The notes: generated by a model not told the origin, from the letters alone. A DNA stretch of 64,000 nt from Crocinitomicaceae bacterium (GCA_044374225.1 JBILOX010000006.1:12861-76860); one strand, 5' to 3'; shown: positions 6,001-63,157, numbered from the stretch's first letter. Numbers and translations: made by a program.

Positions 6001-9000
6001 AACATGTCCAGGGGCAGTAGAGAATTTTTCAATTACCGTAAATCCAATTCCTGTCGTAAATTCTATTTCGAATTCAACTTTTTGCAATGGAACAACAAGC
6101 TCATCCATAGCAATCAACGGAACTGGAACCTCTTATTCGTGGATCAATAGTAATCCATCGATTGGATTAGGCACATCAGGAACAGGAGCAATTTCGCCCT
6201 TTCTAACAACCAATTCCGGAATAACATCTATTAATGGAACCATATCCATTACACCAACTTTTTTAAATGCTGGAGTATCATGTACCGGGAATACTTCAAA
6301 TTTTACAATTACCGTAAACCCAACACCTACTATTAATCCAATTAATAATCAAGTGGTATGTAACAATACATCCACAAGTGCTGTTCTATTCTCGGGTACG
6401 GGAACATCTTACACTTGGTCAAATGATAATCCAACAATTGGGCTTCAAATATCCGGAACAGGAAATATTAGTCCTTTTACAGCCACGAATAGCAGCACAC
6501 AAAACGATGTAATATCAACTGTAATTGCTACTCCAGTTTATACAAATAATTCTGTTTCATGTCTAGGAGCAACCACGTCATTCACCCTAACCGTCAATCC
6601 TACTCCAACGGTTATAGCTCCAAATAATCAAACGGTTTGTAATGGAGGAACAACTTCGCAAATTGTTTTTTCAGGAACAGGTACATCCTACACGTGGACA
6701 AATAGCGATCCTTCTATTTCACTTGCATCAAATGGAACTGGAACGATTAACCAATTTGTAGCAACCAATAATGGCGCTTCTCCAGTAAACGCGCAAATTG
6801 CAGTAACTCCAGTATTTCTAGGGAGTAATATTAGTTGCGCAGGAAATCCACAGAACTTTAGTATTTCTGTTAATCCAACACCAACACTTTTAGATCCAAC
6901 TGATCAAATTGTTTGCAACAACACATTGACGAATGCCGTTAATTTTTCAGGTAATGGAACCTCTTATTCCTGGGTAAATGACAATCCATCAATTGGACTT
7001 TTGGCTGCAGGAACTGGAAATATTTTGGCATTTAATTCAATCAATACTTCTTTAACCCCAATTATTGCAACCATAAGTATTACACCTAATTTCAGCGGTG
7101 GAGCAGCAAGTTGTCCGGGAGTAGGACAATCATTTACAATTACAGTAAATCCAACGCCAAGCTTAACCCAATTAACAAGTGAAGTATTGTGTGATGGCAG
7201 CTCAACTTCGCCGATTATTTTTACAGGCACTGGCACCTCTTATTCATGGACAAATAATACACCAGCGATCAATTTAGCAGCATCTGGGATTGGAGACATT
7301 CCTAGTTTTACAATTGATAACCCAAGCACATCAAATGTTTTAGTTGCAACTATCAGTGCCACTCCTATTTATACAAATGCTGGATTGAATTGTCTAGGAA
7401 ATTCTCAGCAAATGACATTTACAGTAAATCCAACACCTGTAATCACATCAATTTCAAATTTAACCTATTGCAATGCTACAAATACACAGTTAATTAGTTT
7501 TGCTGGAACTGGAACAACTTATAATTGGACAAATAACAATACAACTATAGGTTTAAATACATCAGGGAATGGGAATTCTATAAGTTCTTTTAATGCAATT
7601 AATCAAAGTACTCAAACAGTTAGCTCAACGATTAATGTAACTCCGCAATATGTTGCTAATGGTATAACTTGTCCAGGAAACTCGACCAATTTTACAATTA
7701 CTGTTAATCCCACACCAACGGTTAATCCAATTGCAAATCAATCCCTATGTAATGGAACCTTAACAAATCCAGTAATTTTCACAGGAAATGTTACTAGCAC
7801 AGTATTTAACTGGACAAACAACGTGTCTACAATTGGACTAAGTAATTCGGGCAGTAGTGATATTACATCTTTTAATGGCTTAAATAATGGTACAACGCCA
7901 GTTATCGCTCAAATTAATGTAACACCCATTTTCACAACGAATAATATAAGTTGTCCAGGGAATTCTCAATCGTTTACTTATACGATTAACCCTACTCCAA
8001 GTGTGAATAATCCAGGAAATCAATATTCTTGCGAGGGCGTGAATACAACTAATTTGATTTTTGGAGGAACAGGAAATAGCTACAGTTGGTCTAGTTCCAA
8101 TCAAAGTACTGGAATTCCACAAAATGGATATGATAACATCGCTTCATTTTTAACCCAAAATGGAAGTACGAGTCCTGTTTCAAGTTTAATCACCGTTACA
8201 CCCTATTTTAATGCTTCGCCAGTTTCTTGTCCTGGTGCACCGCAACAATTTTCTTATTTTGTTTTACCTAATCCACAAGTTACACCAATTGTAAATCAAA
8301 ACTATTGTCATCAATCAATTGTTCCAACAACAACAATTACGGGAACAGGAACTTCTTATACTTGGACTAATTCAAATACTTCCACAGGACTTGTTTCTGG
8401 CGGTCAAAACACTGTAAATAGCTTTTCAGGAGTTAATACTTCAGCGATAGCTAATGTTAGTTCTATTGCAGTAATACCTGTTTATTCTTTTCAAGGATTT
8501 TCATGTAATGGTCAAAATTCCAACTATTCGATTACGATTAATCCTCTACCTCATGTAAACGCACTTAATGATACGGTTATTTGTAATTATGAAAGTTTAG
8601 CCGTGAACATTAGTTCAAATATCCCATCTAATTTCACTTGGAATGCGACATCAAACAATAATGTCAATGGAGAATTAACAACAATTCAAACTTCGAATTT
8701 CATAATAGATTCTCTTGCTAATTTATCAAATTCACCACAATTTGTAACCTATACCATTACTCCAACTTCGTTTCCGGAAGGATGCATTGGACCGGATTCT
8801 TCATTTATTGCACAAGTGCAACCTGATGTTGTTTTATCAATCCCTACAAATCTTGAGATTTGTAGTGGGTCACCCGTAAATGCTATTTTGAATGCCAATA
8901 TCCCATCAAATTTTCAATGGTTCGTGTCTATCAATAATCCGAATGTTACGGGTGAATCATTGTTGACAAATACCAATAATGTAATAGGAGATATTTTAAT

Positions 9001-11266
9001 TAATAATGCGAATACTGATCAGGTTGTAATTTATTCAGTGTTTCCAACTTCGATTCAAGGAAATTGTATTGGCGCGGCACAAACCATAACAGTAATCGTA
9101 AAACCTCCACTCGCTTTGTTAAATGTCGACACATTGACAATTTGCAGCAACGACAATGTAAATTTAAATTTAGTGGCGAATACAAATGTCACTTTCAACT
9201 GGTATGCAGATCAGTCACTTAATGTTTTAAATGAGACAACAACCATTACAACATCACCGGTAATTTCTGATGTCTTGGTTAACCCAACTGGTAATGTAGA
9301 AGAAGTTACTTACCATGTAATTGGAACTTCAACTGTAAATGGCTGTTCAAGTCCTATAATTCCGATTACTGTTTTTGTAAATCCATTACCAATTGTTGAT
9401 CCTACACCTGACTTAAATTTATGTCATAATTACTCAAATCCACCAATTCTTTTCACAGGAAATGTTACTGGGGCGATTTACAATTGGACTTCCACCAGTG
9501 TTGCAGTTGGTCTGACTTCATCCAATGGTTCAAACTCTGTTCCTGGATTTACGACTACCAATTTAACCTCATCCCCAATTTCTGCAATTATTGATGTTAA
9601 GCCTATTTATACTAATAATAATGTGTCGTGTATGGGAACGGTTGACCAATTCACGATAACTGTAAATCCTGAACCATCGATTTATCCGTTGCCAAATATT
9701 ACACTTTGTCATGGTTCCCTTTCAAATACGGTTCAAATTGCAGGTCCGATTAGCGGATCTAGCTATACCTGGACAAATTCAAATCCGGCAATTGGACTAG
9801 GAGCTACAGGAACTGGAGATATTCCATCATTCTTTGGCGCTAACTTAACAAATTCATCTATCCAATCTACGATTGAAGTTACCCCAGCTTATATTAATAA
9901 TACAACGACCTGTTATGGTCAAATTAGTACGATTAATGTTACCATACATCCAATGCCTCATGTTTTGAATGGAGATGTTACTATTTGTTCTGGAGAAAAT
10001 ACAAACATAACGTTACAATCTGATATTCCGAGTACGTTTGAATGGCAAGCAATTCCATCCACGGAAGTATATAATGAAACTTCTTACCCCTTGCAAACGA
10101 GTTCTTTAATCTCGGATGATTTGGTTCAATTAGGTAATATACAAGAAGTAGTGCAATATCAAGTAACGCCAATATCTATTCCGTTTGGTTGTGTCGGTCC
10201 TAATTCTACAATTTTTGTTTACGTAAATCCATTACCTTCTGTTAATTTTGCTGCGATTAATCCTCCTTTTTGTGATTTAAATCCTATAGCCTTTCAAAAT
10301 AATTCGATTGGGACGTTGGATTTCATCTGGAGTTTTGGAGATGGAACGCTTTCCTATTTAAATAATCCGACCCATCAATTCCCCTCAGTAGGCAGTTTTA
10401 ATGTACAATTAAATGCAACAAATCCACTTACAGGATGTATAGATAGTTTGGTGCTCCCTATAATTGTTTCTCCTTCTCCTGATGCTAACTTTAATTATTC
10501 AGATTCTATTGGTTGTGATGTGTTAGACGTACTATATTCAGCATCAACCTCTAATCCTGCATGGAATTATTTATGGGATTTTGGAAATGGACAAACCACG
10601 CAGCAAGTTGGTACTGTAGGTTACCAATTTGATCAAGATGGTTGCTACGATGTGAGTCTTACTGTAACGAATAATCAAGGATGTTCATCCTCTGAGACAT
10701 ATTTAAATATTGCTTGTGTTTTTGACAGCCCAATTGCCAGTTTCTACACTGATCAATTGAATATAACTGTAGTCGAACCTCTAGTTTATTTTTATAATGA
10801 ATCTCAAAATACAACATCATTTGAATGGGATTTTGGTGACGGAACCACTGGATTTGCTGAAAATCCAATTCACACTTTTCCAGGAGAAGCGGGAGACTAT
10901 AACGTAATTTTAACTGTGTATAACCAAATTGGTTGTATTGATACCGCATCTTTAATTATCAATGTTTTTCAAGATTTAATTTTTTATGTTCCAAACAGTT
11001 TTACACCTAATGGTGATGAAGAGAATCAGATTTTTCTTCCCATACTTGCCGCAGGATATAAAAAAGACACGTATAGATTAACCATTTATAATCGTTGGGG
11101 GGAAATTGTATTTGAATCGCGAGATGAAAATTTGGGATGGTATGGTTCTTATGGAACTTTAGGAAAAGATTGTCAGATTGGAACTTATACTTGGATTATT
11201 GAAGTTGAAATGTTACAGAGTCAGGAAGTTAAAAAATTTATTGGTCACGTTAATTTAATTAGATAA
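2..11266 (+). CDS. Giant repetitive cell-surface (adhesin-like) protein, 5'-partial (N-terminus upstream of window); T9SS type B (gliding-motility-associated) C-terminal sorting domain
   Basis: Frame 2 is open from nt 2 (GNISAFSTVNSGATPVVATITVTPTANNCSGNPISFTITVNPTPQV precedes the TTG at 146 used by the ORF track), so the CDS runs off the 5' edge. It has at least 33 tandem ~90-aa units with the conserved pattern C-x-G ... Y-x-W-x-N-x-N ... IGL ... G-x-G-x-I ... F ... C-x-G ... F-x-ITVNPTP. A second repeat class occupies ~8.55-10.2 kb. Three PKD-like modules (WSFGDGT, WDFGNGQ, WDFGDGT) lie at ~10.3-10.9 kb. The C-terminus FYVPNSFTPNGDEENQIF...YNRWGEIVFES...GTYTWIIEV resembles the type B T9SS CTD family. 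Confidence 0.9.
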   Translation, partial: GNISAFSTVNSGATPVVATITVTPTANNCSGNPISFTITVNPTPQVLNLNNLTVCPQAIVPANVLTSNVAGATYSWNVSNSNLGLTPISGTTNSIPGFTAINNTTSPVTGTVTITPSVLLNGVTCAGSPATYTITVNPKPTMTPYNPQLFVFCEATTATVNFNSNIATNMSYSWTNDNTAIGIGASGTSNSPGAGLSFTAVNNSNQPLTSNFIATPFYTNNGVSCPGNPVSFAITINPLPDVIPLNSYTICATSTGSNLYSSLNPIIGLGTTYVWTNSNPAIGMISSGTGSNFFTATNTTLNPISGLITVTPTYTNNNVSCTGAPITFTITVTPMPTVDPIANQSLCVGSSTTAVIPTGTIPNTVFTWNNGNTTTGLGANGLGTIPSFIGINSTNQPNVSTINVIPSYTFNNITCTGTAGQFGITVNPTPILDTIIDNQVCSGSNVNVTFSSVSNIVGTTYQWSNSNPNIGLSSSGNGNVSFNAINTTNSSITGQITVTPSYTNAGITCTGNTRTFNITILPTPTVSSINDQTLCSGGNTNQINFTSNLPGTIFDWTNSNNSIGLSSNGTGSIASFVTTNSGTQPIQGIISVSPSLSTNNQTCTGSAVTGTLTVNPIPVMTPISSQSFCQGASVNLVLNSNLTSNVVYNWTNSNNAIGLGSSGTGNINFTALNSSNNSISSVISVTPVYAFNGVLCSGIPLVFNIQVVPAPTVNPITDLVYCNNTLTNPISFGSNVLNTTFSWVNGNTNIGLTSSGSGTVPGFTATNSSSNSPLSSIVSVTPTLSTGGSTCTGQTANFTITVNPTTTVTAIPPVTLCNGANSSTINFSGTGNAYAWSNNNTSIGLAASGIGNITPFIASNSGTAPITSTISVLSQYSGGGITCNGANSTFSITVNPSPSVTPPTNQILCNGSTSNLLSLTGNATNYTWTNSLPSIGLANSGSGDIPIFTAINTTNNPVVATVIITPIYLFGNASCNGPTQSFTFTVNPAPAVTFSSGNQTICSSSTSNQVTISSSTNNALISWTATNVPASISGLNATSGNNSIPSFSLVNSSTSPQTITLLANATTSGNLSCPGGGTPYTITVNPPATINPISDQVICAGTSTSAVTFAGNATNYIWSNNTNTIGLGSSGSGNIPVFQVINGGNSVVTATISATPQFINNNVTCNGIPVNFTITVNPTPIVNAISNLTICNTSTTQPIAITGTGTTYNWTNSNTQIGLGSNGIGDINSFVAINSTNTPVTSSISVVPTFTNNGVSCPGSPLLFSITVNPTPTINTMNNQVVCNGANTNAIQFTGTGTSYSWSNSNSGINLAISGTGNIPVFSATNSTAVPLIGTLTVTPVYTNNNVACNGNAITATITVNPTPSLNVPVNQVICNGTSTSQIVFSGTGTSYNWTNSNSSIGLNSVGTGTINSFTGINNSVSAISGQISVTPIFLGNSVSCSGVPQLFSITINPSPSVVDPADQVICNGLPTNAINFSGNGSSYNWTNDNSAIGLPASGTGNIGSFNALNTTTAPITATITVQPIFTGGNLSCPGINQTFTITVNPTPTLNTLSNQVVCSSSSTSPILFSGNSSAFSWVNNTPNIGLSANGTGNIAAFTALNSSNSTTLIGTITVTPQYTNGGLTCNGTSQQLTITVNPTPIVSSVPDITLCNGSLSTVISFGGTATSYTWINNNSTIGLATNGIGNIASFTPTNSGIQPVVGSISVTPTYTGNGVNCIGNDAIFNITINPTPTVDAISDQVICNGSPSISVGLSGTVPNTLFNWTNNTPSIGLTNSGTSTIPSFNGVNNSTNPIIAQLIATPVFTNNNVSCAGTPQNFSITVNPTPIVNFNLSNQTICSQNNNASVSISSPTAGASISWNVVSIPADISGFTSTSGGATIPSFNLTNASSSPQTIQLIANATTGGNLTCPGGGTPYTITVNPTPIVTDPSDQVICHNSATSTVIFSGTGTSYTWTNNTPSIGLSASGQGNINSFSVINGTNSIVTGTIAVTPQYTFNTVTCPGAVENFSITVNPIPVVNSISNSTFCNGTTSSSIAINGTGTSYSWINSNPSIGLGTSGTGAISPFLTTNSGITSINGTISITPTFLNAGVSCTGNTSNFTITVNPTPTINPINNQVVCNNTSTSAVLFSGTGTSYTWSNDNPTIGLQISGTGNISPFTATNSSTQNDVISTVIATPVYTNNSVSCLGATTSFTLTVNPTPTVIAPNNQTVCNGGTTSQIVFSGTGTSYTWTNSDPSISLASNGTGTINQFVATNNGASPVNAQIAVTPVFLGSNISCAGNPQNFSISVNPTPTLLDPTDQIVCNNTLTNAVNFSGNGTSYSWVNDNPSIGLLAAGTGNILAFNSINTSLTPIIATISITPNFSGGAASCPGVGQSFTITVNPTPSLTQLTSEVLCDGSSTSPIIFTGTGTSYSWTNNTPAINLAASGIGDIPSFTIDNPSTSNVLVATISATPIYTNAGLNCLGNSQQMTFTVNPTPVITSISNLTYCNATNTQLISFAGTGTTYNWTNNNTTIGLNTSGNGNSISSFNAINQSTQTVSSTINVTPQYVANGITCPGNSTNFTITVNPTPTVNPIANQSLCNGTLTNPVIFTGNVTSTVFNWTNNVSTIGLSNSGSSDITSFNGLNNGTTPVIAQINVTPIFTTNNISCPGNSQSFTYTINPTPSVNNPGNQYSCEGVNTTNLIFGGTGNSYSWSSSNQSTGIPQNGYDNIASFLTQNGSTSPVSSLITVTPYFNASPVSCPGAPQQFSYFVLPNPQVTPIVNQNYCHQSIVPTTTITGTGTSYTWTNSNTSTGLVSGGQNTVNSFSGVNTSAIANVSSIAVIPVYSFQGFSCNGQNSNYSITINPLPHVNALNDTVICNYESLAVNISSNIPSNFTWNATSNNNVNGELTTIQTSNFIIDSLANLSNSPQFVTYTITPTSFPEGCIGPDSSFIAQVQPDVVLSIPTNLEICSGSPVNAILNANIPSNFQWFVSINNPNVTGESLLTNTNNVIGDILINNANTDQVVIYSVFPTSIQGNCIGAAQTITVIVKPPLALLNVDTLTICSNDNVNLNLVANTNVTFNWYADQSLNVLNETTTITTSPVISDVLVNPTGNVEEVTYHVIGTSTVNGCSSPIIPITVFVNPLPIVDPTPDLNLCHNYSNPPILFTGNVTGAIYNWTSTSVAVGLTSSNGSNSVPGFTTTNLTSSPISAIIDVKPIYTNNNVSCMGTVDQFTITVNPEPSIYPLPNITLCHGSLSNTVQIAGPISGSSYTWTNSNPAIGLGATGTGDIPSFFGANLTNSSIQSTIEVTPAYINNTTTCYGQISTINVTIHPMPHVLNGDVTICSGENTNITLQSDIPSTFEWQAIPSTEVYNETSYPLQTSSLISDDLVQLGNIQEVVQYQVTPISIPFGCVGPNSTIFVYVNPLPSVNFAAINPPFCDLNPIAFQNNSIGTLDFIWSFGDGTLSYLNNPTHQFPSVGSFNVQLNATNPLTGCIDSLVLPIIVSPSPDANFNYSDSIGCDVLDVLYSASTSNPAWNYLWDFGNGQTTQQVGTVGYQFDQDGCYDVSLTVTNNQGCSSSETYLNIACVFDSPIASFYTDQLNITVVEPLVYFYNESQNTTSFEWDFGDGTTGFAENPIHTFPGEAGDYNVILTVYNQIGCIDTASLIINVFQDLIFYVPNSFTPNGDEENQIFLPILAAGYKKDTYRLTIYNRWGEIVFESRDENLGWYGSYGTLGKDCQIGTYTWIIEVEMLQSQEVKKFIGHVNLIR

Positions 11267-15401: not shown

Positions 15402-16163
15402 ATGCGACTATATCTGAACGAAAAAGAATACATTGAAACGAATGAACCTTTGGATCTTTCCATTGGTTTGCAAGCAGGAGAAGGAAATTTAAGAGCTTGG
15501 TATGTGAATCCTCCAACTTTTGAACCTGTTCGTGCTAATGGTTTTATTGGAAGCGTAAAAGAGGGTGGTGGTGTAAACTTTCGCGATGTGTTTTTTAACC
15601 CACACGGACATGGTACGCATACAGAATGCCATGGTCACATTACACCTGAAGTTGTTTCCGTTAATCAAAAGTTACGCTCGTATTTTTTTAAAGCAAGAGT
15701 GGTTTCCGTTCAACCAGAAATTTTGGAAAATGGTGATGAATTAATAACAAAAAATCTGTTCGCGGAAAAAATTGACGATTCACCCTTCGAAGCTTTGATT
15801 ATTCGAACACTTCAAAATTCGTTTGATAAAACTTCCAAAAATTATTCTGACACCAATCCACCTTATTTGGACTTATCCGTTATGGAAATTATTGAAAAGC
15901 ATGATATTCAACATTTATTAGTCGATATGCCTTCTGTTGACAGGGAATCTGATGAGGGTAAATTGGCCTTTCACCACGCATTTTGGAATGTTCCCGAAAA
16001 TCCGAATGACAAAACGATCACTGAATTGATTTATGTTAAAGATGAAATCATAGATGGGTTATACATTTTAGAAATGCAAATGGCTCCTTTTGAGAATGAT
16101 GCGAGTCCTAGTCGCCCTGTTCTTTACAAAATACAGGGTAGGGAAAAGTTCCGCAGGATTTGA
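15402..16163 (+). CDS. Putative cyclase / arylformamidase-family protein
   Basis: 253 aa. The motif HGHGTHTECHGH resembles the HxGTHxDxPxH metal-binding signature of the putative cyclase (kynurenine formamidase-like) family. The last six codons and the TGA stop (EKFRRI*) are supplied by the palindromic repeat at 16145. Confidence 0.65.
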   Translation: MRLYLNEKEYIETNEPLDLSIGLQAGEGNLRAWYVNPPTFEPVRANGFIGSVKEGGGVNFRDVFFNPHGHGTHTECHGHITPEVVSVNQKLRSYFFKARVVSVQPEILENGDELITKNLFAEKIDDSPFEALIIRTLQNSFDKTSKNYSDTNPPYLDLSVMEIIEKHDIQHLLVDMPSVDRESDEGKLAFHHAFWNVPENPNDKTITELIYVKDEIIDGLYILEMQMAPFENDASPSRPVLYKIQGREKFRRI

Positions 16164-16197
16164 AAGTTCTGCAGGATTTGAAATCCTGCGGAACTTT
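16145..16197 (+). repeat. Palindromic junction repeat, copy 1 (one extra left half-site plus a ~29-35-nt palindrome followed by a T-run)
   Basis: aaagttccgcaggatttga / aagttctgcaggatttgaaatcctgcggaactttttt. Same family as the copies at 21725, 23257 and 24819. The stem plus T6 resembles an intrinsic terminator. Confidence 0.9.
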
Positions 16198-16831
16198 TTT
16201 CCACTATTTCTCCAACGTTCTAAATCTAAAAGTACTTTACGATTCATTTTCTATAATAATTTGGATGTTACATTACATTATTTATCCGTCTAAAAACACA
16301 AAGTAAAGGCAAATTATTTTTTTACTTCTGATTAGAAAAAAATCAAACCACAGAGTAAACGGAGGATGCAGAGATGAATTAACAACTAAAAAAGTAATTT
16401 TTTTTTGTTTGCTTCTTTTGTGAAAATGTATTTGATTCACTTTGACAAACTAAGGTATTTAAAAAAAAAATGTTTTTTTTCTCCTTTAACTCTTTGATCC
16501 TCTGCGGTAAAAACAACATAATCTTCTGTTTTATTTTTCTAATTATTGTAATCGAAAAGGATACAAGAAAATTGGTTCTCCCAATACTTATGTTAGAAAA
16601 TGAACAAAATTTCAAACTGCAAACTGATTGTACTACCTTGATTTTTCTTTGCACCGATGATGGAAAATTCTATCTGAGGTGGAATCTTGCGAGCCAGATG
16701 CGCGAGAAAGTAGAATTGTCACTAATGAAATGAATCTATTTCTTTTGGTTGAAAGCAATTGCAAAAAAAAATGTTTGCAAAATGTTTAATGTAATCGGGA
16801 CAAATCTCCTTCTCACTCTACTTAGTGGTAT

Positions 16832-17314
16832 ATGCATTTAGAAAAACTGAGAAAATTCATTCATTTGGTGGAGCGCAAGCAGACGGGAAAACCTGCTGAT
16901 GTTGCAAAGATATTAGGCGTTTCGGAGCGAATGATTTACAATTACACCAATTTTATTCGCAAAGAGTTGAATGCTCCCATTGTGTGGAATAACTTCAAGC
17001 AAAGCTATTTGTTTGCTGAAAGTGGCGTTTTGATTTGGAAATACAATAAAAATCATTCTATTGAACAAACAGATGCTGTATTTAATAACAAGCAACTGGC
17101 AACCTTGAACCGCATTTATTTGGGAATTAAACAAAACAATATCGTTTCTGCCGCTCAGTTTGCAAAGCAACTTGATATATCAGAACGCAGTTTTTTTAAT
17201 TATTTAAACGTGCTTAAAAACGAATTTCAGTGCCCTTTAATTTTTGACAAAAGCAGCAACAGCTACCAATTCAAACAAACTGGAAATTTGAACTTAAAAT
17301 GGCAAGCAAAATAA
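16832..17314 (+). CDS. Transcriptional regulator made of two tandem HTH modules
   Basis: 160 aa with a clear internal duplication: GKPADVAKILGVSERMIYNYTNFIRKELNAPIVWNNFKQSYLF versus VSAAQFAKQLDISERSFFNYLNVLKNEFQCPLIFDKSSNSYQF. The modules are HTH_11 / YafY-N-terminal-like. Confidence 0.75.
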   Translation: MHLEKLRKFIHLVERKQTGKPADVAKILGVSERMIYNYTNFIRKELNAPIVWNNFKQSYLFAESGVLIWKYNKNHSIEQTDAVFNNKQLATLNRIYLGIKQNNIVSAAQFAKQLDISERSFFNYLNVLKNEFQCPLIFDKSSNSYQFKQTGNLNLKWQAK

Positions 17315-21000: not shown

Positions 21001-21432
21001 TTATCAAATATGGCTCTTTTGACAACTATCCAAAGTAATTTGAATTCATATACAGATTTAACTCCACCAACTGGACCAGTATTTTACCAAATTGAGGTTG
21101 TAAATCCTAATAATTGTGATCCAACTAAAATAATGAATTATGGTCTTTCAAAGTCTAATATTGTAGATAATGGAGTAAGTGGAATAAGTGAGGAAGTATT
21201 GTCAACAATAAATGTTTATCCGAACCCAACCAATGATAAATTTACTCTGAATGTTTCAAACGATTTGTTAGGAAAAGGATATGTAATCACTGATTTTTCT
21301 GGAAGAATAATTTCTCAAGGAAAAATTAATTCATTGATTCAAACCATAGATGTTCAGGAAATTTCTAAAGGTGCGTATTTCTTACAAATTGATAAATCAA
21401 CTACAAAAGCAATTAAAATTATCAAACAATAA
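18004..21432 (+). CDS. Large secreted multidomain protein: beta-propeller-type ~60-aa repeats, PKD domain, Ig/Fn3-like region, T9SS type A C-terminal sorting domain
   Basis: Signal peptide MKKIILLLFTGICLISFG. About 7 repeats of DGSLDxxFNxGSGF...IQxDGKxxVGGxFxSFNGxxRNxIxRLN (delta-60 / DUF5122-like). Two near-identical ~52-aa CxxSSYxWNGQQYNS...GCDSxxTLNLS repeats. PKD motif WDFGDGT. The C-terminus INVYPNPTNDKFTLNV...GAYFLQI...IKIIKQ is typical of Por/T9SS type A CTDs. Confidence 0.9.
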   Translation: MKKIILLLFTGICLISFGQQFKADLTFNTGIGFDQGVTDIITQQDGKIIVGGRFELYGMNTTYTRRIARLNSNGSLDNTFNTGSGFNNDVTSLAIQTDGKIVVGGEFSSFNGIARNRIARLNNDGSLDTTFNPGSGFFNGFDFCSVYSISIQSDDKLIVGGGFSSFNGVSRKCIARLNNDGSLDATFNPGSGFFNQFDFCNVSSTSIQFDGKLIVGGGFSSFNGIGRNNILRLNSDGSLDNTFNPGSGFDTEVSSTAIQSDGKLIVGGGFTSFNGISRNGITRLNSDGSIDNSFNIGSGCSGSIPSVLSLAIQTDGKILIGGLFTSFNGINIKSIARLNINGTLDNSFNTGTGFIDSNNGPGFISSILTLSDDKFVATGEYSSFNGVNRNKISRIIDCSSNSSNNIANVTVCDLTVIQIGNQNYATSNSYTWPLNGETYYETGQYNTNITINSVGCDSVNTLDLNFHQNWRETSILACYLDTFYIDGYGYISNQSGYFFAYSNQPALYGCDSLVIYDLTSISPIYNSFNVSICPGSSYTWNGQQYNSDGQFQQTFSSLITGCDSIVTLNLSYILPVYTSFNVSICPSSSYIWNGQQYNSPGQYQQSFSSFLTGCDSISTLNLSFVPNNFNPTFSSAQQLYTAPPFAVQFTNSTANPSNYSFTWDFGDGTTLASNNATVFHQYLYNGQYTLSLIATSNTTGCSDTTTLSDYIFCTGGVSCTHVATINQTSPQQACQGTPLWLSCNNDPSFTYQWRRNGVTIPGNNNDSLAVTQSGTYSVIISVNNCPITSGDVVVTIFSAPSTPIITSSGAIQPCVGGSVTLNAGSYTTYNWSTGATTQSINVNSSGTYSVSVTGANGCSASSTPFNVNASFVAPPQVCIVGMDSLTNENRIVWEKPLTLGIDSFYVYKESNVSNVYTKIGATDYNQLAVFLDANSNPAVQAYRYKISALDTCGTESNVGDFHKTIHLTINQGVGNSWNLIWSHYEGLTFGSYRIYRGTSLSNMALLTTIQSNLNSYTDLTPPTGPVFYQIEVVNPNNCDPTKIMNYGLSKSNIVDNGVSGISEEVLSTINVYPNPTNDKFTLNVSNDLLGKGYVITDFSGRIISQGKINSLIQTIDVQEISKGAYFLQIDKSTTKAIKIIKQ

Positions 21433-21456
21433 ACAATTTTTATTATAGTTTAGTTT

Positions 21457-21491
21457 AAATCCCATCAGCTTCGGTTGGTGGGATTTTTTTT
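21457..21491 (+). terminator. Intrinsic terminator (13-bp stem, UUCG loop, T-run) after the 1142-aa gene
   Basis: aaatcccatcagc-ttcg-gttggtgggattt followed by T8. This is the first part of the ~230-bp 3'-flank module. Confidence 0.75.
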
Positions 21492-21567
21492 ATATTGTTT
21501 TTTGAGAAATTTCAGATTATTTCAAAAACCTAGACCCCAATCAAAAAACAATTTCGATTATATAATG

Positions 21568-21684
21568 GATAAATGGTTTAAACCATTTTTTATATGTATT
21601 CATTTCATCATAGGGGAGGTTTTAAAACCTCCCCTATGATAAATCACCAAATAATTCAATAACCATTTCAATGGTTTGAGGTTG
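21568..21684 (+). repeat. Hairpin module, copy 1
   Basis: taaatggtttaaaccatt palindrome, then a perfect 17-bp-arm palindrome atcataggggaggtttt/aaaacctcccctatgat (21607-21640), then aaccatttcaatggtttgaggttg. The flanks are homologous to 23388-23505. Confidence 0.9.
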
Positions 21685-21724
21685 TTCATTTAATTCGTGC
21701 CAACGAAATACAGTTTCGGTTAAT

Positions 21725-21807
21725 AAAGTTCCGCAGGATTTGAAACGTAAAGTTCCGCAGGATTTCAAATGTAAAGTTCCGCAGGATTTGAAATCCTGCG
21801 GAACTTT
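21725..21807 (+). repeat. Palindromic junction repeat, copy 2 (two 24-bp left half-site units plus a 35-nt perfect palindrome)
   Basis: aaagttccgcaggatttgaaacgt | aaagttccgcaggatttcaaatgt | aaagttccgcaggattt-g-aaatcctgcggaacttt. Confidence 0.95.
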
Positions 21808-21829
21808 ACTGAAATCACAAAATAAATGT

Positions 21830-21837
21830 TATATTTG
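21830..21837 (+). promoter_or_regulatory. Candidate -7 box (TATATTTG) for the ATPase gene
   Basis: Matches TAnnTTTG. It lies 23 nt after the palindrome and 30 nt upstream of the ATG at 21868. Confidence 0.45.
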
Positions 21838-21867
21838 TGTAAATAATCACATTTTACATACTTATAT

Positions 21868-23178
21868 ATGGAAAGAGACCTACAACTTCAATTAATTAAA
21901 TGGAAAAACAAAACCGAGAGGTTACCATTAATTCTTCAAGGAGCGAGACAAGTTGGTAAAACCTATCTTATGCGTTGGTTTGGAGAAAATGCCTTTTCAC
22001 AATTTATTTACTTCAACTTTGACGAACGTCCAGAGTTAAAAGATTTTTTTCAAAAAAATAAAGATATACATCGAATCCTTGAGTCGTTTTCGCTTATCAG
22101 TGGTAAAGAAATAAATAGCGAAACATTGATAATTTTAGATGAAATCCAAGAATGTCCAGAGGCTTTGAATACCTTGAAATATTTTGCAGAACAAAAACCT
22201 GAAATTCCAATTATATGTGCTGGCTCACTTTTGGGTATATTGTTAAATTCAGGTAATTCTTTTCCTGTTGGGAAGGTTGAGTTTTTAACGCTTTATCCAA
22301 TGACATTTCGAGAAGTATTACCTAATTGGAGTAATTCTTTATCGAAGTATGTAGAGCAATTAGATGCACTAACTCCCATTCCTGACTATTTTTTTAATGA
22401 TTTATTACATCATTTCAAAAAATACATGATTACAGGAGGAATGCCGGCAATTGTTAAATCCTTTAACGACTCGAATACATTTGAAAATACAGACGAAACC
22501 TTAAACAATCTTATTCTTTCGTACAAAGGTGATTTTGCGAAACATCCAATTATGACAAACGTTGCTAAAATTGGCGAAGTGTTTAATTCGTTGCCCGCAC
22601 AACTTGCGAGAAAAAACAAAAAATTCATTTATCAATTAATTCGAACGGGAGCAAGAGCAAGAGAATATGAAGATGCAATTCAATGGTTGATAAATGCAGG
22701 ATTAGTATATCAAGTGAAATTAAATACAAAGCCATCATTACCACTAAGCGCTTATGAAGATCAAAGTGCATTTAAATTATATGCTTTAGACGTGGGAATT
22801 ATAAGAAACTTAGCTAAACTTTCACCAAGTGTTTTTTTAGAAGGAAATCGCCTTTTTTCTGAGTTTAAAGGTGCGTTGATAGAAAATTACATCCTACAAA
22901 GTTTGGTTGCTCAATTAAAAACTCCTCCTAGATATTGGACATCTGGAAATACTGCTGAAATTGACTTTTTAATTCAAATTGAAAATGAAATTATTCCAAT
23001 CGAAGTGAAGAGCGATGAAAATGTTAAAAGTAGAAGTCTCTCGTTATATAATGAAAAGTTTAATCCTTCATTAAGAATACGGTATTCATTGAAAAATTTA
23101 CAATATAGAGATGGCTTGTTGAATATTCCTCTTTTTCTAGCAGATTACACCATAGAAATGATTCGACGGGTTAAATAG
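21868..23178 (+). CDS. AAA+ ATPase with C-terminal DUF4143 / restriction-endonuclease-like domain
   Basis: 436 aa. Walker A is GARQVGKT and Walker B is LIILDEIQ. The C-terminal AEIDFLIQIENEIIPIEVKSDENVKS is typical of the AAA_14 + DUF4143 family. Confidence 0.85.
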   Translation: MERDLQLQLIKWKNKTERLPLILQGARQVGKTYLMRWFGENAFSQFIYFNFDERPELKDFFQKNKDIHRILESFSLISGKEINSETLIILDEIQECPEALNTLKYFAEQKPEIPIICAGSLLGILLNSGNSFPVGKVEFLTLYPMTFREVLPNWSNSLSKYVEQLDALTPIPDYFFNDLLHHFKKYMITGGMPAIVKSFNDSNTFENTDETLNNLILSYKGDFAKHPIMTNVAKIGEVFNSLPAQLARKNKKFIYQLIRTGARAREYEDAIQWLINAGLVYQVKLNTKPSLPLSAYEDQSAFKLYALDVGIIRNLAKLSPSVFLEGNRLFSEFKGALIENYILQSLVAQLKTPPRYWTSGNTAEIDFLIQIENEIIPIEVKSDENVKSRSLSLYNEKFNPSLRIRYSLKNLQYRDGLLNIPLFLADYTIEMIRRVK

Positions 23179-23256
23179 AAAATGAGCAAATGGTTTTTAA
23201 CGATTAAATTGACAGACAAAATAAAGGATTCAGGTAAGAAAAATTCTATTGAAATT

Positions 23257-23307
23257 AAAGTTCAGCAGGATTTGAAATCCTGCGGAACTTTCAAATCCTG
23301 CGGAACT
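23257..23307 (+). repeat. Palindromic junction repeat, copy 3 (palindrome followed by an extra right half-site, so inverted polarity relative to the other copies)
   Basis: aaagttcagcaggatttgaaatcctgcggaacttt + caaatcctgcggaact. Confidence 0.9.
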
Positions 23308-23337
23308 CCCGTTCGCTTCGGTTGGTGGGATTTTTTT
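23307..23337 (+). terminator. Degenerate copy of the UUCG-loop terminator hairpin
   Basis: tcccgttcgc-ttcg-gttggtggga followed by T7. Homologous to 21457-21491 but with more G-U pairs and mismatches. Confidence 0.4.
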
Positions 23338-23387
23338 GTCGCCAAATTTTGGTTAGTTGGTATTTTTTGGGAAATAAAAATTTTCGA

Positions 23388-23505
23388 GGGTAAATGGTTA
23401 AAACCATTTTATGTACGTGTGGTTTTCTCCTTAGGGTCGGATTTAAATCCGACCCTAAGGAGAAACACCAAAAAATTCATCAACCATTTCAATGGTTTGA
23501 GATTG
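23388..23505 (+). repeat. Hairpin module, copy 2
   Basis: taaatggttaaaaccatt, then a perfect 20-bp-arm palindrome ttctccttagggtcggattt/aaatccgaccctaaggagaa (23425-23464), then aaccatttcaatggtttgagattg. Same architecture as copy 1, but the central hairpin has a different sequence. Confidence 0.9.
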
Positions 23506-23610
23506 GAGTTTACTAAACTTGATATGAAATTATATTCAATAGTATATTGAGGAATCTAATTTCTTTGTAGGTAATGATAATGTTTTAGCAAAGAAATAAA
23601 ATCACAAAAA

Positions 23611-23628
23611 GTAAACAGATTTGTTTAC
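23611..23628 (+). promoter_or_regulatory. Candidate operator (inverted repeat GTAAACA-N4-TGTTTAC) upstream of the HigA-like gene
   Basis: Perfect 7-bp inverted repeat ending 16 nt upstream of the -7 box, roughly where a -33 element would be expected. This fits autoregulation by the HTH antitoxin. Confidence 0.4.
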
Positions 23629-23643
23629 TAAATAAAAATTTTT

Positions 23644-23651
23644 TACCTTTG
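23644..23651 (+). promoter_or_regulatory. Candidate -7 box (TACCTTTG) for the HigA-like/AbiEii-like pair
   Basis: Matches TAnnTTTG and lies 16 nt upstream of the ATG at 23668. Confidence 0.5.
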
Positions 23652-23667
23652 ATAAAAAACAAAGAAT

Positions 23668-24174
23668 ATGTTGCCTGAAATTTCAAAGATAAAAGGAATT
23701 CATCCTGGAGCTATTTTAAAAAGAGAACTCAAAAATCAAAGCCTGAAAAGTAGTGAATTAGCCAAATCAGTTAATGAACACAAGCAAACTATCAGTGCAA
23801 TTCTCAATGAAAAAAGAAGTGTTAATCCTGGACTTTCAATCAAACTGGCAAAACATTTCGGAGTAGCATCGGATTACTTTATGCATGTTCAAGCCAGTTA
23901 TGATATCCAAATAGAATTACAAAAAGACGCTGAAAAAAGTACCCCAGACCTCAAGAAGATACGGAAAATAGTATTTTGGGATACTGATTTCAACCTATTG
24001 GATTGGGAAAAACAAAAATCTGCTATTATCAAGCGTATCTTCGAAAGGGGAAATGATACAGAGATTAAGGAGATTATTTCTTTTTATGGACTTTCAACTG
24101 TGAAACAAACAATTGATGCTACTAAAAATAATTTTCTTCCTGCTTTCAATGAAAATGTAAAAAAGTACTTATAG
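23668..24174 (+). CDS. HigA-type XRE-HTH antitoxin-like protein fused to a C-terminal domain of unknown function
   Basis: The N-terminus IHPGAILKRELKNQSLKSSELAKSVNEHKQTISAILNEKRSVNPGLSIKLAKHFG is typical of HigA addiction-module antidotes. The C-terminal ~80 aa (IVFWDTDFNLLDWEKQKSAIIKRIFERGNDTEIKEIISFYG) is an extra domain. Confidence 0.75.
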   Translation: MLPEISKIKGIHPGAILKRELKNQSLKSSELAKSVNEHKQTISAILNEKRSVNPGLSIKLAKHFGVASDYFMHVQASYDIQIELQKDAEKSTPDLKKIRKIVFWDTDFNLLDWEKQKSAIIKRIFERGNDTEIKEIISFYGLSTVKQTIDATKNNFLPAFNENVKKYL

Positions 24175-24189
24175 ATAATACAGCATAAA

Positions 24190-24837
24190 TTGAATACACT
24201 TCACAGAAATACCGTTTCAGAATCGCTTTGGGTTTCATTAAATAAACTCATGAAAATTGAAGAATTAAAGAGTTTTCGATTGGTTGGTGGTACTTCTTTA
24301 AGTTTGCAAATTGGACACAGAATGTCCGTCGATATTGATTTGTTTACTGATGCACCTTATGATTCTATCGATTTCGACCGAATTGATGAAGTGATATGTT
24401 CAACCTTTCCAACAGTTGAAATGGGATATGGAGGAAATCACTCTATGGGTAAATCTTACTTTGTAGGAACATCAAAGGAAGACCTCGTCAAATTAGATTT
24501 TTTTTACACAGATTCATTTGTCTTTCCAGTACTTATTGAGCAGGATATTCGATTTGCAAGATTAGAAGAAATTGCGGCAATGAAACTAGAAGTGATAGGT
24601 AACAATGGAAGAAAAAAAGACTTTTGGGACCTTCATGAATTAATGGATCATTTTTCTCTAAATCAAATGATTGAATTTTATGAAAAACGCTATCCGTATA
24701 GCCTTACGAAAAAAGAAATAATATCCCAACTTACCTTTTTTGATAATGCAGACGAAGATTTTGATCCAATTTGCCTTCGTAATAAATATTGGGAGTTGAT
24801 AAAATTAGATTTTGAGGAAAAGTTCCGAAGGATTTGA
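24190..24837 (+). CDS. Nucleotidyltransferase, AbiEii/AbiGii toxin-like (DUF1814) family
   Basis: TTG start. FRLVGGTSLSLQIGHRMSVDIDLFTD matches the GGTAL...HR.S.DIDLF NTase signature of AbiEii-like proteins. The N-terminal LHRNTV segment argues for the TTG start rather than the internal ATG. The last six codons and the stop (EKFRRI*) come from the junction repeat. Confidence 0.75.
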   Translation: MNTLHRNTVSESLWVSLNKLMKIEELKSFRLVGGTSLSLQIGHRMSVDIDLFTDAPYDSIDFDRIDEVICSTFPTVEMGYGGNHSMGKSYFVGTSKEDLVKLDFFYTDSFVFPVLIEQDIRFARLEEIAAMKLEVIGNNGRKKDFWDLHELMDHFSLNQMIEFYEKRYPYSLTKKEIISQLTFFDNADEDFDPICLRNKYWELIKLDFEEKFRRI

Positions 24838-24925
24838 AACGCAAAGTTCCGAAGGATTTGAAACGCAAAGTTCAGCAGGATTTGAAACGTAAAGTTCCGC
24901 AGGATTTGAAATCCTGCGGAACTTT
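24819..24925 (+). repeat. Palindromic junction repeat, copy 4 (three 24-bp left half-site units plus a 35-nt perfect palindrome)
   Basis: aaagttccgaaggatttgaaacgc x2 | aaagttcagcaggatttgaaacgt | aaagttccgcaggattt-g-aaatcctgcggaacttt. Confidence 0.95.
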
Positions 24926-25039
24926 CTGCTAAAAGGATTTTTTATTCAAACTTGAAAAAACTTGCACTATAGATTTAATAGGCGACTGCAAAAATAGTTC
25001 ACTGTATTTTGTTTCTTTTGCAAGACTATATTTATAGAT

Positions 25040-27445: not shown

Positions 27446-27550
27446 ATACCAATTTACTTGTTAAATGACGTAATTGAAAATCTATCTGGTATAATGCCGA
27501 GTTAGTTTTCAACGAGTATTCTACACGACAATTGAAAACAACTTCGGTAT
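27446..27550 (+). mobile_element. 105-bp MITE-like element (family A), copy 1
   Basis: ataccaatttacttgttaaatgacg...gaaaacaacttcggtat. Its reverse complement is identical (105/105, checked base by base) to 34809-34913. Short imperfect terminal inverted repeats (ATACC...GGTAT) and an internal gttttcaa/ttgaaaac hairpin. No coding capacity. Confidence 0.9.
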
Positions 27551-29962: not shown

Positions 29963-30112
29963 AAATCTCATCGGTGTGAGTTGGTAGGATTTATTCGTAT
30001 TGTTTTTTTTGAGAAATTTTAGTTTATTTCAAAGACCAAAACCCCTGAATCTGGAGTGTGGGAATTAATAAGTTGAAAAGAACAATAATTAATTTTCAAC
30101 TAGGTTTGAGGT
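29963..30112 (+). repeat. 3'-flank module, copy 3 (partial and diverged)
   Basis: Hairpin aaatctcatcgg...ttggtaggattt plus a spacer attgttttttttgagaaattttagtttatttcaaagaccaaaacccc homologous to 21457-21538. This is followed by the hairpin gttgaaaa-N13-ttttcaac and taggtttgaggt (compare ggtttgaggttg in copy 1). Confidence 0.75.
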
Positions 30113-30198
30113 CCAAAATACGTACTATTTTTCAATGTAATTTAGCTGATTGGCTAATCCAAGAATAGCTCTACAAATAACTTCTGCGCGAGAAAAAA

Positions 30199-30248
30199 TA
30201 AGACTGTTTCAAAAGCCTAGATGAGAAATGGGTTTTGCAACGGTCTTA
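30199..30248 (+). mobile_element. MITE-like element family B, short (50-bp) form
   Basis: taagactgtttcaaaag...gggttttgcaacggtctta. The termini are inverted repeats (TAAGACTGTT / AACGGTCTTA) and are shared with 32173-32295. Confidence 0.8.
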
Positions 30249-30366
30249 TGCTGCGATTGTCAGCAAAATAAAGACCCAACTCTAATGGCAAAGTGAAAAA
30301 TTCGATTATGAAATTATTTACGAAAGTTTTATAGTTTCATATTTCCAATAAATCCTATCTGTTTTG

Positions 30367-32172: not shown

Positions 32173-32295
32173 TAAGACTGTTTCAAAAGTTATTAATCGA
32201 GGCTTTGCAAAAATTTAATACCGGAGTTAACCCTTGTTAATGAGGATATTAAATTTTTGAAGTAACGATGAGAAATGGATTTTGCAACGGTCTTA
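32173..32295 (+). mobile_element. MITE-like element family B, long (123-bp) form
   Basis: taagactgtttcaaaagttattaatcgaggctttgcaaaaatttaataccggagtt...tattaaatttttgaagtaacgatgagaaatggattttgcaacggtctta. The two halves are largely self-complementary (caaaaatttaata / tattaaatttttg), giving a long imperfect hairpin. Confidence 0.85.
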
Positions 32296-34665: not shown

Positions 34666-34808
34666 GGTTTTAAGTTTTATTTCTTTTAAGATGCAAAGCG
34701 GGTAACTTTTCCATAAATTTATTGTTTATTTTTTGGATGGTATCGGTTCAATACTAAAATTTGCACCATAGATTCGTAACGCAATTGTTTCACTTCCTGC
34801 TAGTAGTA

Positions 34809-34913
34809 ATACCGAAGTTGTTTTCAATTGTCGTGTAGAATACTCGTTGAAAACTAACTCGGCATTATACCAGATAGATTTTCAATTACGTCATTTAACA
34901 AGTAAATTGGTAT
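34809..34913 (-). mobile_element. 105-bp MITE-like element (family A), copy 2, inverted
   Basis: The reverse complement is 105/105 identical to 27446-27550. Confidence 0.9.
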
Positions 34914-34982
34914 AATTTCACTTTTTAGCTACCTAAACTAAAATTTATGTTGCTCCATTGTTAATAATCAACTAAAGATGCT

Positions 34983-58589: not shown

Positions 58590-58668
58590 GGAGTTTCATC
58601 CATGCCCTAATTAATGAAAATGTTAAATTTTGAAGTAACGATGAAAAATGGGTTTTGCAACGGTCTTA
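58590..58668 (+). repeat. Right-half copy of MITE-like family B
   Basis: ggagtt...ccctaattaatgaaaatgttaaattttgaagtaacgatgaaaaatgggttttgcaacggtctta aligns with 32224-32295. The left half (taagactgtttcaaaag) is absent. Confidence 0.75.
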
Positions 58669-62888: not shown

Positions 62889-63000
62889 GGGTAAATGATA
62901 GCGGTAAATTGACTTGATTTTGATCATTTTAGCTTCCTCCCTTGAGGGAGGATTAAGGAGGGTGACCACGTGATTATCAATTATTCAATGTATTATATCA

Positions 63001-63157
63001 ACTTACATACTAAATGACGCAATGGAAAATCCGTCTGGTATATTGCAAAGTTAGTTTTCTACAAGTATTTTTTTTATGACTTCGAAGCTACGAATGAAAA
63101 CAACTCCGGTATTAAATTTTTGCAAAGCCTCGATTAATGACTTTTGAAACAGTCTTA
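63001..63157 (-). repeat. Mosaic repeat: diverged family-A element fused to the left half of family B
   Basis: taaatgacgcaatggaaaatccgtctggtata...agttagttttc...gaaaacaactccggtat is a diverged family-A copy. It is followed directly by taaatttttgcaaagcctcgattaatgacttttgaaacagtctta, the reverse complement of the family-B left half (32173-32225). Confidence 0.8.

Follow-up and report, generated by a model that had tools for sequence, protein, structure and literature searches.

The window analysed here, a 64-kb stretch of a Crocinitomicaceae genome (64,000 nt), carries two copies of a structured module on its + strand. Both lie in a low-GC stretch (0.31-0.33, versus 0.35-0.37 in the flanks) which is bounded by a cyclase gene and holA and has all of its genes on +: an HTH gene, genes for a T9SS substrate protein, an AAA_14/DUF4143 ATPase, an HTH_3-DUF6922 protein with AbiEii and a CHAT protein, and small unknown ORFs. 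The two modules are co-oriented and bracket the ATPase gene, a candidate defence gene; the same module-ATPase-module arrangement was present in four of four metagenome contigs encoding an identical ATPase, among which strain polymorphism was sought and none was found. Each copy is located 170-190 nt 5' of a gene, and HTH genes are found nearby at 16832-17314 and 23668-24174. Both copies are intergenic; a 122-aa ORF spanning the second copy (23182-23550) has no Pfam match and was read as spurious. In the window the module top strand coincides with the G-rich strand, on which most of the genes also lie. No Y1 HUH transposase gene was detected in the 64-kb window by tblastn, and therefore its two copies can only be non-autonomous or relics. 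The features of the locus are as follows.

21457..21494 (+): terminator-like hairpin with T-run, 5' of the module (terminator scan)
21568..21684 (+): module copy 1, solo, with no adjoining transposase gene (direct-repeat family D17; covariance model R1)
21571..21588 (+): P1 palindrome of copy 1, AAATGGTT T AAACCATTT (inverted repeat I5)
21607..21640 (+): central perfect palindrome of copy 1, ATCATAGGGGAGGTTTT followed directly by AAAACCTCCCCTATGAT, 17-bp arms
21661..21676 (+): P3 palindrome of copy 1, AACCATT TC AATGGTT (inverted repeat I19)
21677..21724 (+): conserved tail after P3, TGAGGTTG..TTTAATTCGTG..TTTCGGTTA (window copy 1 and loci L001, L002, L004, L038 and L040)
21725..21809 (+): 24-nt tandem repeat AAAGTTCCGCAGGATTTGAAACGT ending in a palindrome, follows the module (likewise in L002 and L004)
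21868..23178 (+): AAA_14/DUF4143 ATPase, bracketed by the two co-oriented modules, candidate defence gene (Pfam; PADLOC PDC-S01, E = 3e-165)
23388..23505 (+): module copy 2, solo (direct-repeat family D17; covariance model R1)
23392..23409 (+): P1 palindrome of copy 2, AAATGGTT AA AACCATTT (inverted repeat I10)
23424..23465 (+): central perfect palindrome of copy 2, TTTCTCCTTAGGGTCGGATTT followed directly by AAATCCGACCCTAAGGAGAAA, 21-bp arms (inverted repeat I1)
23482..23497 (+): P3 palindrome of copy 2, AACCATT-TC-AATGGTT (inverted repeat I20)

The window modules are 117-118 nt long and are composed of three palindromes apiece, P1, central and P3, with the P1-to-P3 distance equal in both. P1 has the general form AATGGTT-N-AAACCATT, realised in the two window copies as AAATGGTT-(T/AA)-AAACCATTT, and TGAG follows directly 3' of P3. 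The first-pass annotation had described two copies with conserved flanks at 21568-21684 and 23388-23505, and this description was borne out: both are on +, belong to family D17 and share 77% ungapped identity, and the 20-mer AACCATTTCAATGGTTTGAG occurs twice in the window versus 0.03 times expected. Covariance model R1 scores copy 1 at 104 bits on + versus 68 on -, and copy 2 at 103.6 bits on +. When folded as single-stranded DNA both copies form three hairpins as the minimum-energy structure, whichever strand is taken, with z = -5.7 (copy 1) and -8.4 (copy 2) against shuffles. The central palindromes are both perfect, with zero spacer; their self-complementarity and the 17-bp arms of the first stand as originally noted, but the arms of the second are of 21 bp and not 20. 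They had also been said to differ in sequence. When their centres are superposed, the two palindromes agree at 11 of 17 arm positions, and each of the six differences has its counterpart on the opposite arm; on this alignment they are homologous with every difference compensated.

A further stretch, 29963-30112, had been taken for a third, diverged copy. It is not a module, as R1 matches only two copies in the window at E<=0.01, and its likeness to the region of copy 1 consists of the upstream terminator-like hairpin with a GAGAAATTT box (21484-21538 versus 29991-30045, D19) together with a 10-nt GGTTTGAGGT match. The window copies fall in a TAGGG/TAGGT subfamily, and the repeat unit of the subfamily exceeds the module: terminator-like hairpin, spacer, module, conserved tail, and the 24-nt tandem repeat ending in a palindrome. 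The hairpin has a partial second copy at 23313-23337 and a third at about 29963-29995, and alignment of the flanks showed that L002, L004, L038 and L040 also have this hairpin ahead of their modules.

Several other repeats were observed in the window. The AAAGTTCCGCAGGATTTGAAACGT family, with further copies at 16148-16198, 23256-23307 and 24819-24926, is unrelated to the module; it is made of one to four tandem units with a closing palindrome of 17-19-bp arms, and 15 matches at <=1 mismatch were counted versus 0.1 expected. Its copies stand at the ends of the gene blocks of the island, and beside the module in the relatives L002 and L004. A direct repeat of about 85 bp (21457-21541 and 29963-30047), which contains the terminator-like hairpin and the GAGAAATTT box (80% identical over 55 nt), encloses an 8.5-kb low-GC stretch encoding the PDC-S01 ATPase, an AbiE-like pair, the CHAT protein and four small unknown ORFs; these repeats look like the borders of an acquired island. 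A third family of intergenic repeats, about 110 nt long and with internal inverted repeats, ATACCAATTTACTTGTTAAATGACGTAATTGAAAATC..TGGTATAATGCCGAGTTAGTTTTCAAC..GAAAACAACTTCGGTATTA, occurs at 27446-27550 (+), 34807-34915 (-) and 62993-63114 (+), and in a related assembled genome (L003, about 680-800) about 100 nt from a module. A 44-nt motif, ..GATGAGAAATGG(G/A)TTTTGCAACGGTCTTA, is present in four intergenic copies (30205-30248, 32252-32295, 58625-58668 and 63114-63157; D15), the one at 30198-30249 forming an imperfect inverted repeat with 20-nt arms upstream of holA. The start of the window is occupied by a 3706-aa ORF (146-11266, +), presumably a giant cell-surface protein, in which a unit of about 276 nt (about 92 aa) with conserved W..N...IG and C..G motifs recurs dozens of times, and this ORF drives the negative GC skew of the first 8 kb.

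Conserved pairing across the module family

The distribution of the module was addressed by a single scan of one genome per prokaryotic species with a strict P1...P3 pattern whose interior was left free. The same architecture was found at 41 loci, all of them in Bacteroidota save for mislabelled assembled genomes, with representatives in Crocinitomicaceae, Chitinophagaceae, Roseivirga, Cyclobacteriaceae, Galbibacter and Saprospira. That P1 and P3 do not vary among these loci is solely a consequence of the search pattern, which demanded both. Family members are about 95-112 nt long (~105 nt), and homology ends sharply, at the 5' side between A and AATGGTT and at the 3' side after AATGGTTT, with flanks that are unrelated between loci; the A 5' of P1 is conserved and often preceded by T or A, and no other flank base is. 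The interior consensus is CATAGCCCACGGTTTAAACCGTGGGCTATG. Its most conserved central parts are a TAG...CTA foot and a TTTAAA centre; the foot reads [ACT]TAG, with T-A-G kept in 36-41 of 43 copies, a first base that is not G, and a mirror image CTA on the 3' side. Assembled genomes carry one to five modules (strict pattern or fetched loci), a lower bound, as the strict pattern misses the common P3 variant AACCGTT.

Solo modules occur in unrelated genomic contexts. A same-strand gene lies upstream of about 23/32 of them (nearest upstream ORFs), often with the module 0-40 nt past the stop codon, and overall modules were found after genes as often as before them. Comparison of module loci showed no target-site duplication above chance, and a scan of viral contigs for phage carriage with a relaxed P3 pattern gave 0 matches. 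At one locus (L021) the aspartyl-tRNA synthetase gene (32-1069) ends ..LNG* with its stop codon inside P1 of the module at 1061-1162, as is seen with the transposase gene described below, so that P1 gives a housekeeping gene an in-frame 'N G stop'.

The first-pass annotation had proposed selection on pairing and a covariation analysis on a larger alignment, and both the proposal and the analysis gave a positive outcome: in the collected homologues all three helices covary. Over 43 genome copies, pairing in the central helix amounts to 81.9%, versus 63.5% in shuffles, and the helix contains 157 double-change cells versus 64, a value reached by 0/500 shuffles; controls in which the helix was slid gave 27-42%. 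In 52 protein-anchored copies, whose MAFFT alignment was made without reference to the structure, two-sided changes were present in all three helices. P1 appears as AATGGTT/AACCATT, AATGGAT/ATCCATT, AACGGTT/AACCGTT and AATGGCT/AGCCATT, P3 in the protein-anchored set as AACCGTT/AACGGTT (n = 32) and AACCATT/AATGGTT (n = 14), and GC, CG, AT and TA pairs all occur at positions 6-10 in the central stem. The shuffle controls disregard relatedness between sequences, but the slid controls, and the fact that single positions show several types of pair, speak against an artefact. Independent insertion of unrelated palindromes, which would have undone the proposal, is excluded since the central palindromes are homologous across the module family; their arms are more alike within a locus (0.877) than between loci (0.74), a difference reached by 0/2000 permutations. 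The suggestion that the flanking boxes pair with each other across the module did not hold up: P1-P3 cross-pairing shows no covariation (392-493 of 500 shuffles do as well) and has an A·C mismatch at one position in 35/51 sequences, and P1 variants are found in free combination with those of P3.

Mismatches of the G·T and A·C kinds in the helices number 33 versus 41 in one count and 36 versus 36 in another, with no G·T excess. Palindromy runs into the loops, with a TTAA centre that is self-complementary in 42/43 copies, while the P1 and P3 'loops' are only 2 nt long and keep an innermost T·A. The Rfam scan that had been suggested for the locus came back empty, with 0 matches in the whole window at the gathering threshold and a best sub-threshold score of <=28 bits versus thresholds of 37-245; a permissive scan of 21400-23700 returned only generic hairpin noise, for example miRNA and snoRNA models. 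Partial duplications or tandem arrays of the module were observed in L042 (2390-2450), L045 (774-809 and 1069-1104), L056 (2929-2960), L064 (2055-2461) and L050 (1-513). Their junctions are at hairpin loops, for example between ..GGTTTAAACC and TAGCCC.. or between ..AACCGTTTTAA(A/C)C and ATAGCCC.., and could mark points of enzyme cleavage or replication slippage at hairpins.

An IS200-like Y1 HUH gene beside the module

Clustering of the ORFs around the genome loci identified one common neighbour, a ~146-aa protein encoded at nine loci and present as a C-terminal remnant at two more; the module thus adjoins this Y1 HUH gene or its remnant in 11/41 loci. The gene is always on the module strand. 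Its placement takes one of two forms: its stop codon falls within P1 (AAT GGT TAA), as is often the case, or its ATG follows the end of the module by about 25-50 nt. In L006, L030, L031 and L032 modules are found on both sides of the gene as direct repeats. The protein has the motifs DH[IV]H, WQ and YIxNQKxHH and matches Pfam Y1_Tnp (E = 1e-26 to 1e-32) and NCBIfam transpos_IS200 above cutoff, whereas REP_Tyr_transpos (NF047646) gave 31.5 and 38.4 bits versus a cutoff of 80. Its closest solved relatives are the TnpA proteins of ISDra2 and IS608, and the E. coli RAYT chain was not among its PDB matches.

The association was also approached from the protein side with 80 metagenome loci picked by the protein alone. 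These proteins have a median length of 145 aa and the motifs DH[IVL]H (75/80), WQ (77/80) and Y...Q..HH (73/80). TnpAY1 subclass 1.2, found in Bacteroidetes or Cyanobacteria, has the signature DH[IV]H, WQ and Y---Q--HH (YIKNQKEHH) and a length of about 148 aa (PMC6006769, Quentin et al. 2018), and by these motifs and this length (PMC6006769 Table 1) we assign the partner protein to that subclass. A module match was obtained with a sequence profile in 65 of the 80 loci, the other 15 having none. The covariance model placed a module upstream of the gene in 48/78, mostly ending 6-30 nt before the ATG, downstream in 25/73, typically beginning in the last codons, and on both sides in 16/71; of the distinct module sites, 77/85 are on the gene strand. 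Some of the protein-picked loci carry tandem arrays of partial modules.

Subclass 1.2 has been described as a low-copy gene class (mean 1.7 copies, 36% identity; Table 1) that does not behave as an IS, and no partner REP is listed for it in the main text or supplements (PMC6006769). We searched the literature for the module by sequence strings and by the terms RAYT, REPIN, TnpAY1 and Bacteroidetes, and no description of it was found. The pairing of the module with subclass 1.2 appears to be new in that no earlier description was found and the sole paper found on the subclass (PMC6006769) reports no partner repeat.

Interpretation of the modules

The explanation that we favour, with a probability of roughly 0.72, is that each module is a solo copy of a cis-acting DNA element belonging to the IS200-like Y1 HUH transposases (TnpAY1 subclass 1.2) of Bacteroidota. 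From the association with the gene and the mode of pairing we infer that the module would serve these enzymes as a single-stranded DNA recognition element, akin to a REP or an IS200 end. Its hairpins would extrude on single-stranded DNA, probably the lagging-strand template, and be bound by the transposase in the manner of REPs and of IS608 and ISDra2 ends; the IS608/ISDra2 and REP/RAYT paradigms, including the lagging-strand template, are summarised in PMC6006769. The enzyme would then cut and rejoin close to the module boundaries, and modules may spread either by mobilisation in trans or as units with the gene between two modules, from which the gene is later lost when these direct repeats recombine. 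Compensatory changes could accumulate because the protein would read the shape of the hairpin plus a few fixed bases. The position of the module top strand on the G-rich strand fits, weakly, exposure on the lagging-strand template. No clean filled/empty pair for a solo module was found among the fetched loci, and the mobility of solo modules is put forward from their many contexts. Against this explanation we count the seemingly low copy number (1-5, a lower bound), the 15/80 transposase loci that have no module, and the absence of a transposase gene from the window. It should be noted that cleavage sites are not assignable, as the same module stands at both ends, has three hairpins and has no conserved flanking tetranucleotide, all of which sets it apart from characterised IS200/IS605 ends.

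The features of the module can be compared with those of known systems. As with the ends of IS200/IS605 elements (IS608, ISDra2, IS200), modules flank a ~145-aa Y1 HUH TnpA, their hairpins are on the gene strand at both ends in an orientation consistent with the lagging-strand template, and there are no terminal inverted repeats (P1 and P3 are self-palindromic and not mutual inverted copies). No target duplication above chance was seen at module loci. Unlike these ends, which are two different ones with one imperfect hairpin each, the same ~105-nt three-hairpin module is found on both sides, its P1 overlaps the stop codon, and no conserved guide, target or cleavage tetranucleotide was recognised; solo modules and tandem arrays are common, the gene class is low-copy and not IS-like (PMC6006769), and the window copies enclose no Y1 HUH TnpA, although related loci do. 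With the REP/BIME/REPIN and RAYT system (REPtron) the modules share a location as short intergenic palindromes on the flanks of a single Y1 HUH gene, with further copies dispersed through the genome, repeats clustering by the gene, copies often just past stop codons, and covarying stems with a conserved foot that contains TAG in the module and GTAG in REPs. REP hairpins have a conserved GT[AG]G at the 5' foot (PMC6006769, PMC3733652), whereas the foot of the module is [ACT]TAG with no G in first place. The partner protein belongs to class 1 (Y---Q--HH) and not class 2 (Y---NP), modules flank the gene as direct and not inverted repeats, each is a ~105-nt composite of three hairpins in contrast to the 20-40-nt single hairpin of a REP, and copy number appears low (1-5, a lower bound from the strict pattern) when compared with tens to hundreds of REPs per genome. 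In comparison with subclass 1.2 as described without a REP (PMC6006769), a structured module adjoins the gene at 65/80 loci.

Neighbouring modules were co-oriented in all 12 of the 12 pairs seen, and several pairs bracket defence-type genes in stretches of 1-3 kb: a Shedu-like protein in Roseivirga seohaensis SW-152 (L013), an EcoRI-type methylase with GmrSD/HNH (L041), an ATPase_2/DUF234 protein (L015) and Abi_2-like genes (L040 with L038, and L075). This association with defence cargo is a collection of individual examples and not a statistical result. Pairs in L002 and L004 bracket a 350-aa unknown protein, and compared with the window these two loci have one extra cassette, which separates the module from the ATPase promoter; the difference can be explained by ordinary homologous recombination between repeats. 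L041 (841-3743) and L015 (3456-5795) hold different cargo within common frames, on the left a module and about 110 nt, on the right about 80 nt and a module without P3, and as judged from these two sequences the site is a cargo-swap hot spot, with cargo breakpoints about 80-130 nt from the modules and not at the modules. That co-oriented pairs might be the ends of non-autonomous single-stranded DNA transposons, moved in trans by the subclass 1.2 enzyme and acting as a cassette-shuttling platform which exchanges anti-phage and accessory genes in Bacteroidota chromosomes, is a tentative extension that we consider more probably wrong than right.

Integron attC sites are structured, variable in sequence and conserved in pairing, and are recognised as single-stranded folds. 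It could be argued that the modules, terminator and 24-nt repeats are the boundaries of a cassette array, either attC-like or as a homologous recombination scaffold of a defence island, to which the transposase link would be secondary. As in attC cassette arrays, co-oriented modules separate accessory genes, and the 12/12 co-orientation, the 1-3 kb of defence-type genes between pairs (window, L013, L041, L015, L040 with L038, L075), the different cargo in the same frames of L041 and L015 and the extra cassette of L002 and L004 all speak for such boundaries. We nevertheless regard this reading as very unlikely. Among the ORFs of the island that were scanned (11975-33855) there was neither an integrase nor another recombinase, the module has three separate local hairpins in place of one long imperfect hairpin with extrahelical bases, it has no RYYYAAC/GTTRRRY core and no conserved P1-P3 pairing, and the breakpoints of L041 and L015 are about 80-130 nt off the modules. 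Replication-linked insertion bias of a single-stranded DNA transposase could explain the co-orientation without functional pairing, and variable regions in any case accumulate both mobile elements and defence genes. Both an attC and a MITE reading of the module itself were rejected, as its architecture does not fit.

The first-pass annotation had left the choice between an RNA and a cruciform or single-stranded DNA site; recognition as single-stranded DNA is the part now favoured, given the tie to the Y1 HUH gene, the lack of a G·T excess and the empty Rfam result, and RNA is disfavoured. A structured RNA would be a 5'-leader or 3'-end element that controls or stabilises the mRNA of the transposase or of the upstream gene, or else a small RNA. 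Such an RNA would agree with the co-orientation of modules and transposase gene (77/85), with the same-strand gene that most solo copies follow (about 23/32) and with an upstream copy that ends 6-30 nt before the ATG and is probably in the leader. IS200 is known to limit transposase expression through leader hairpins (PMC4513863). Set against this are a palindromy which extends into the loops (TTAA in 42/43, 2-nt loops in P1 and P3) and is unneeded for RNA pairing, strands that fold equally well, the absence of an Rfam family at gathering score, and a central hairpin that has no T-run and was not called by the terminator scan. RNA helices normally show a clear G·U excess, but in the module G·T mismatches do not outnumber those of A·C, and on balance we hold the RNA explanation to be unlikely. 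Even less probable, and in our view barely credible, is that the palindromes are double-strand operators for dimeric proteins such as the nearby HTH proteins, in a regulatory region that was duplicated before genes. P1 and P3, short palindromes with 2-nt centres, do have the typical layout of a dimer site, HTH genes are located at 16832-17314 and 23668-24174, and each window copy has a gene 170-190 nt downstream. The stem sequence varies freely while symmetry is kept, however, which fits recognition of shape and not base-specific reading, the neighbour common to distant loci is the Y1 transposase and not an HTH protein, and modules are found after genes as often as before.

If the module is the DNA element of subclass 1.2 transposases, this subclass, which has been known since 2018 without recognisable ends, REPs or role (PMC6006769), gains a candidate DNA substrate, and the idea of the REP or IS200 end would be widened to a composite, directly repeated unit. 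It would also account for strongly covarying intergenic hairpins in Bacteroidota that could otherwise be mistaken for non-coding RNA. Should it be true in addition that module pairs move cargo, they would represent a new route of defence-gene shuffling, and module and TnpA together would be a functional analogue of integron cassettes in which an HUH enzyme replaces the integrase.
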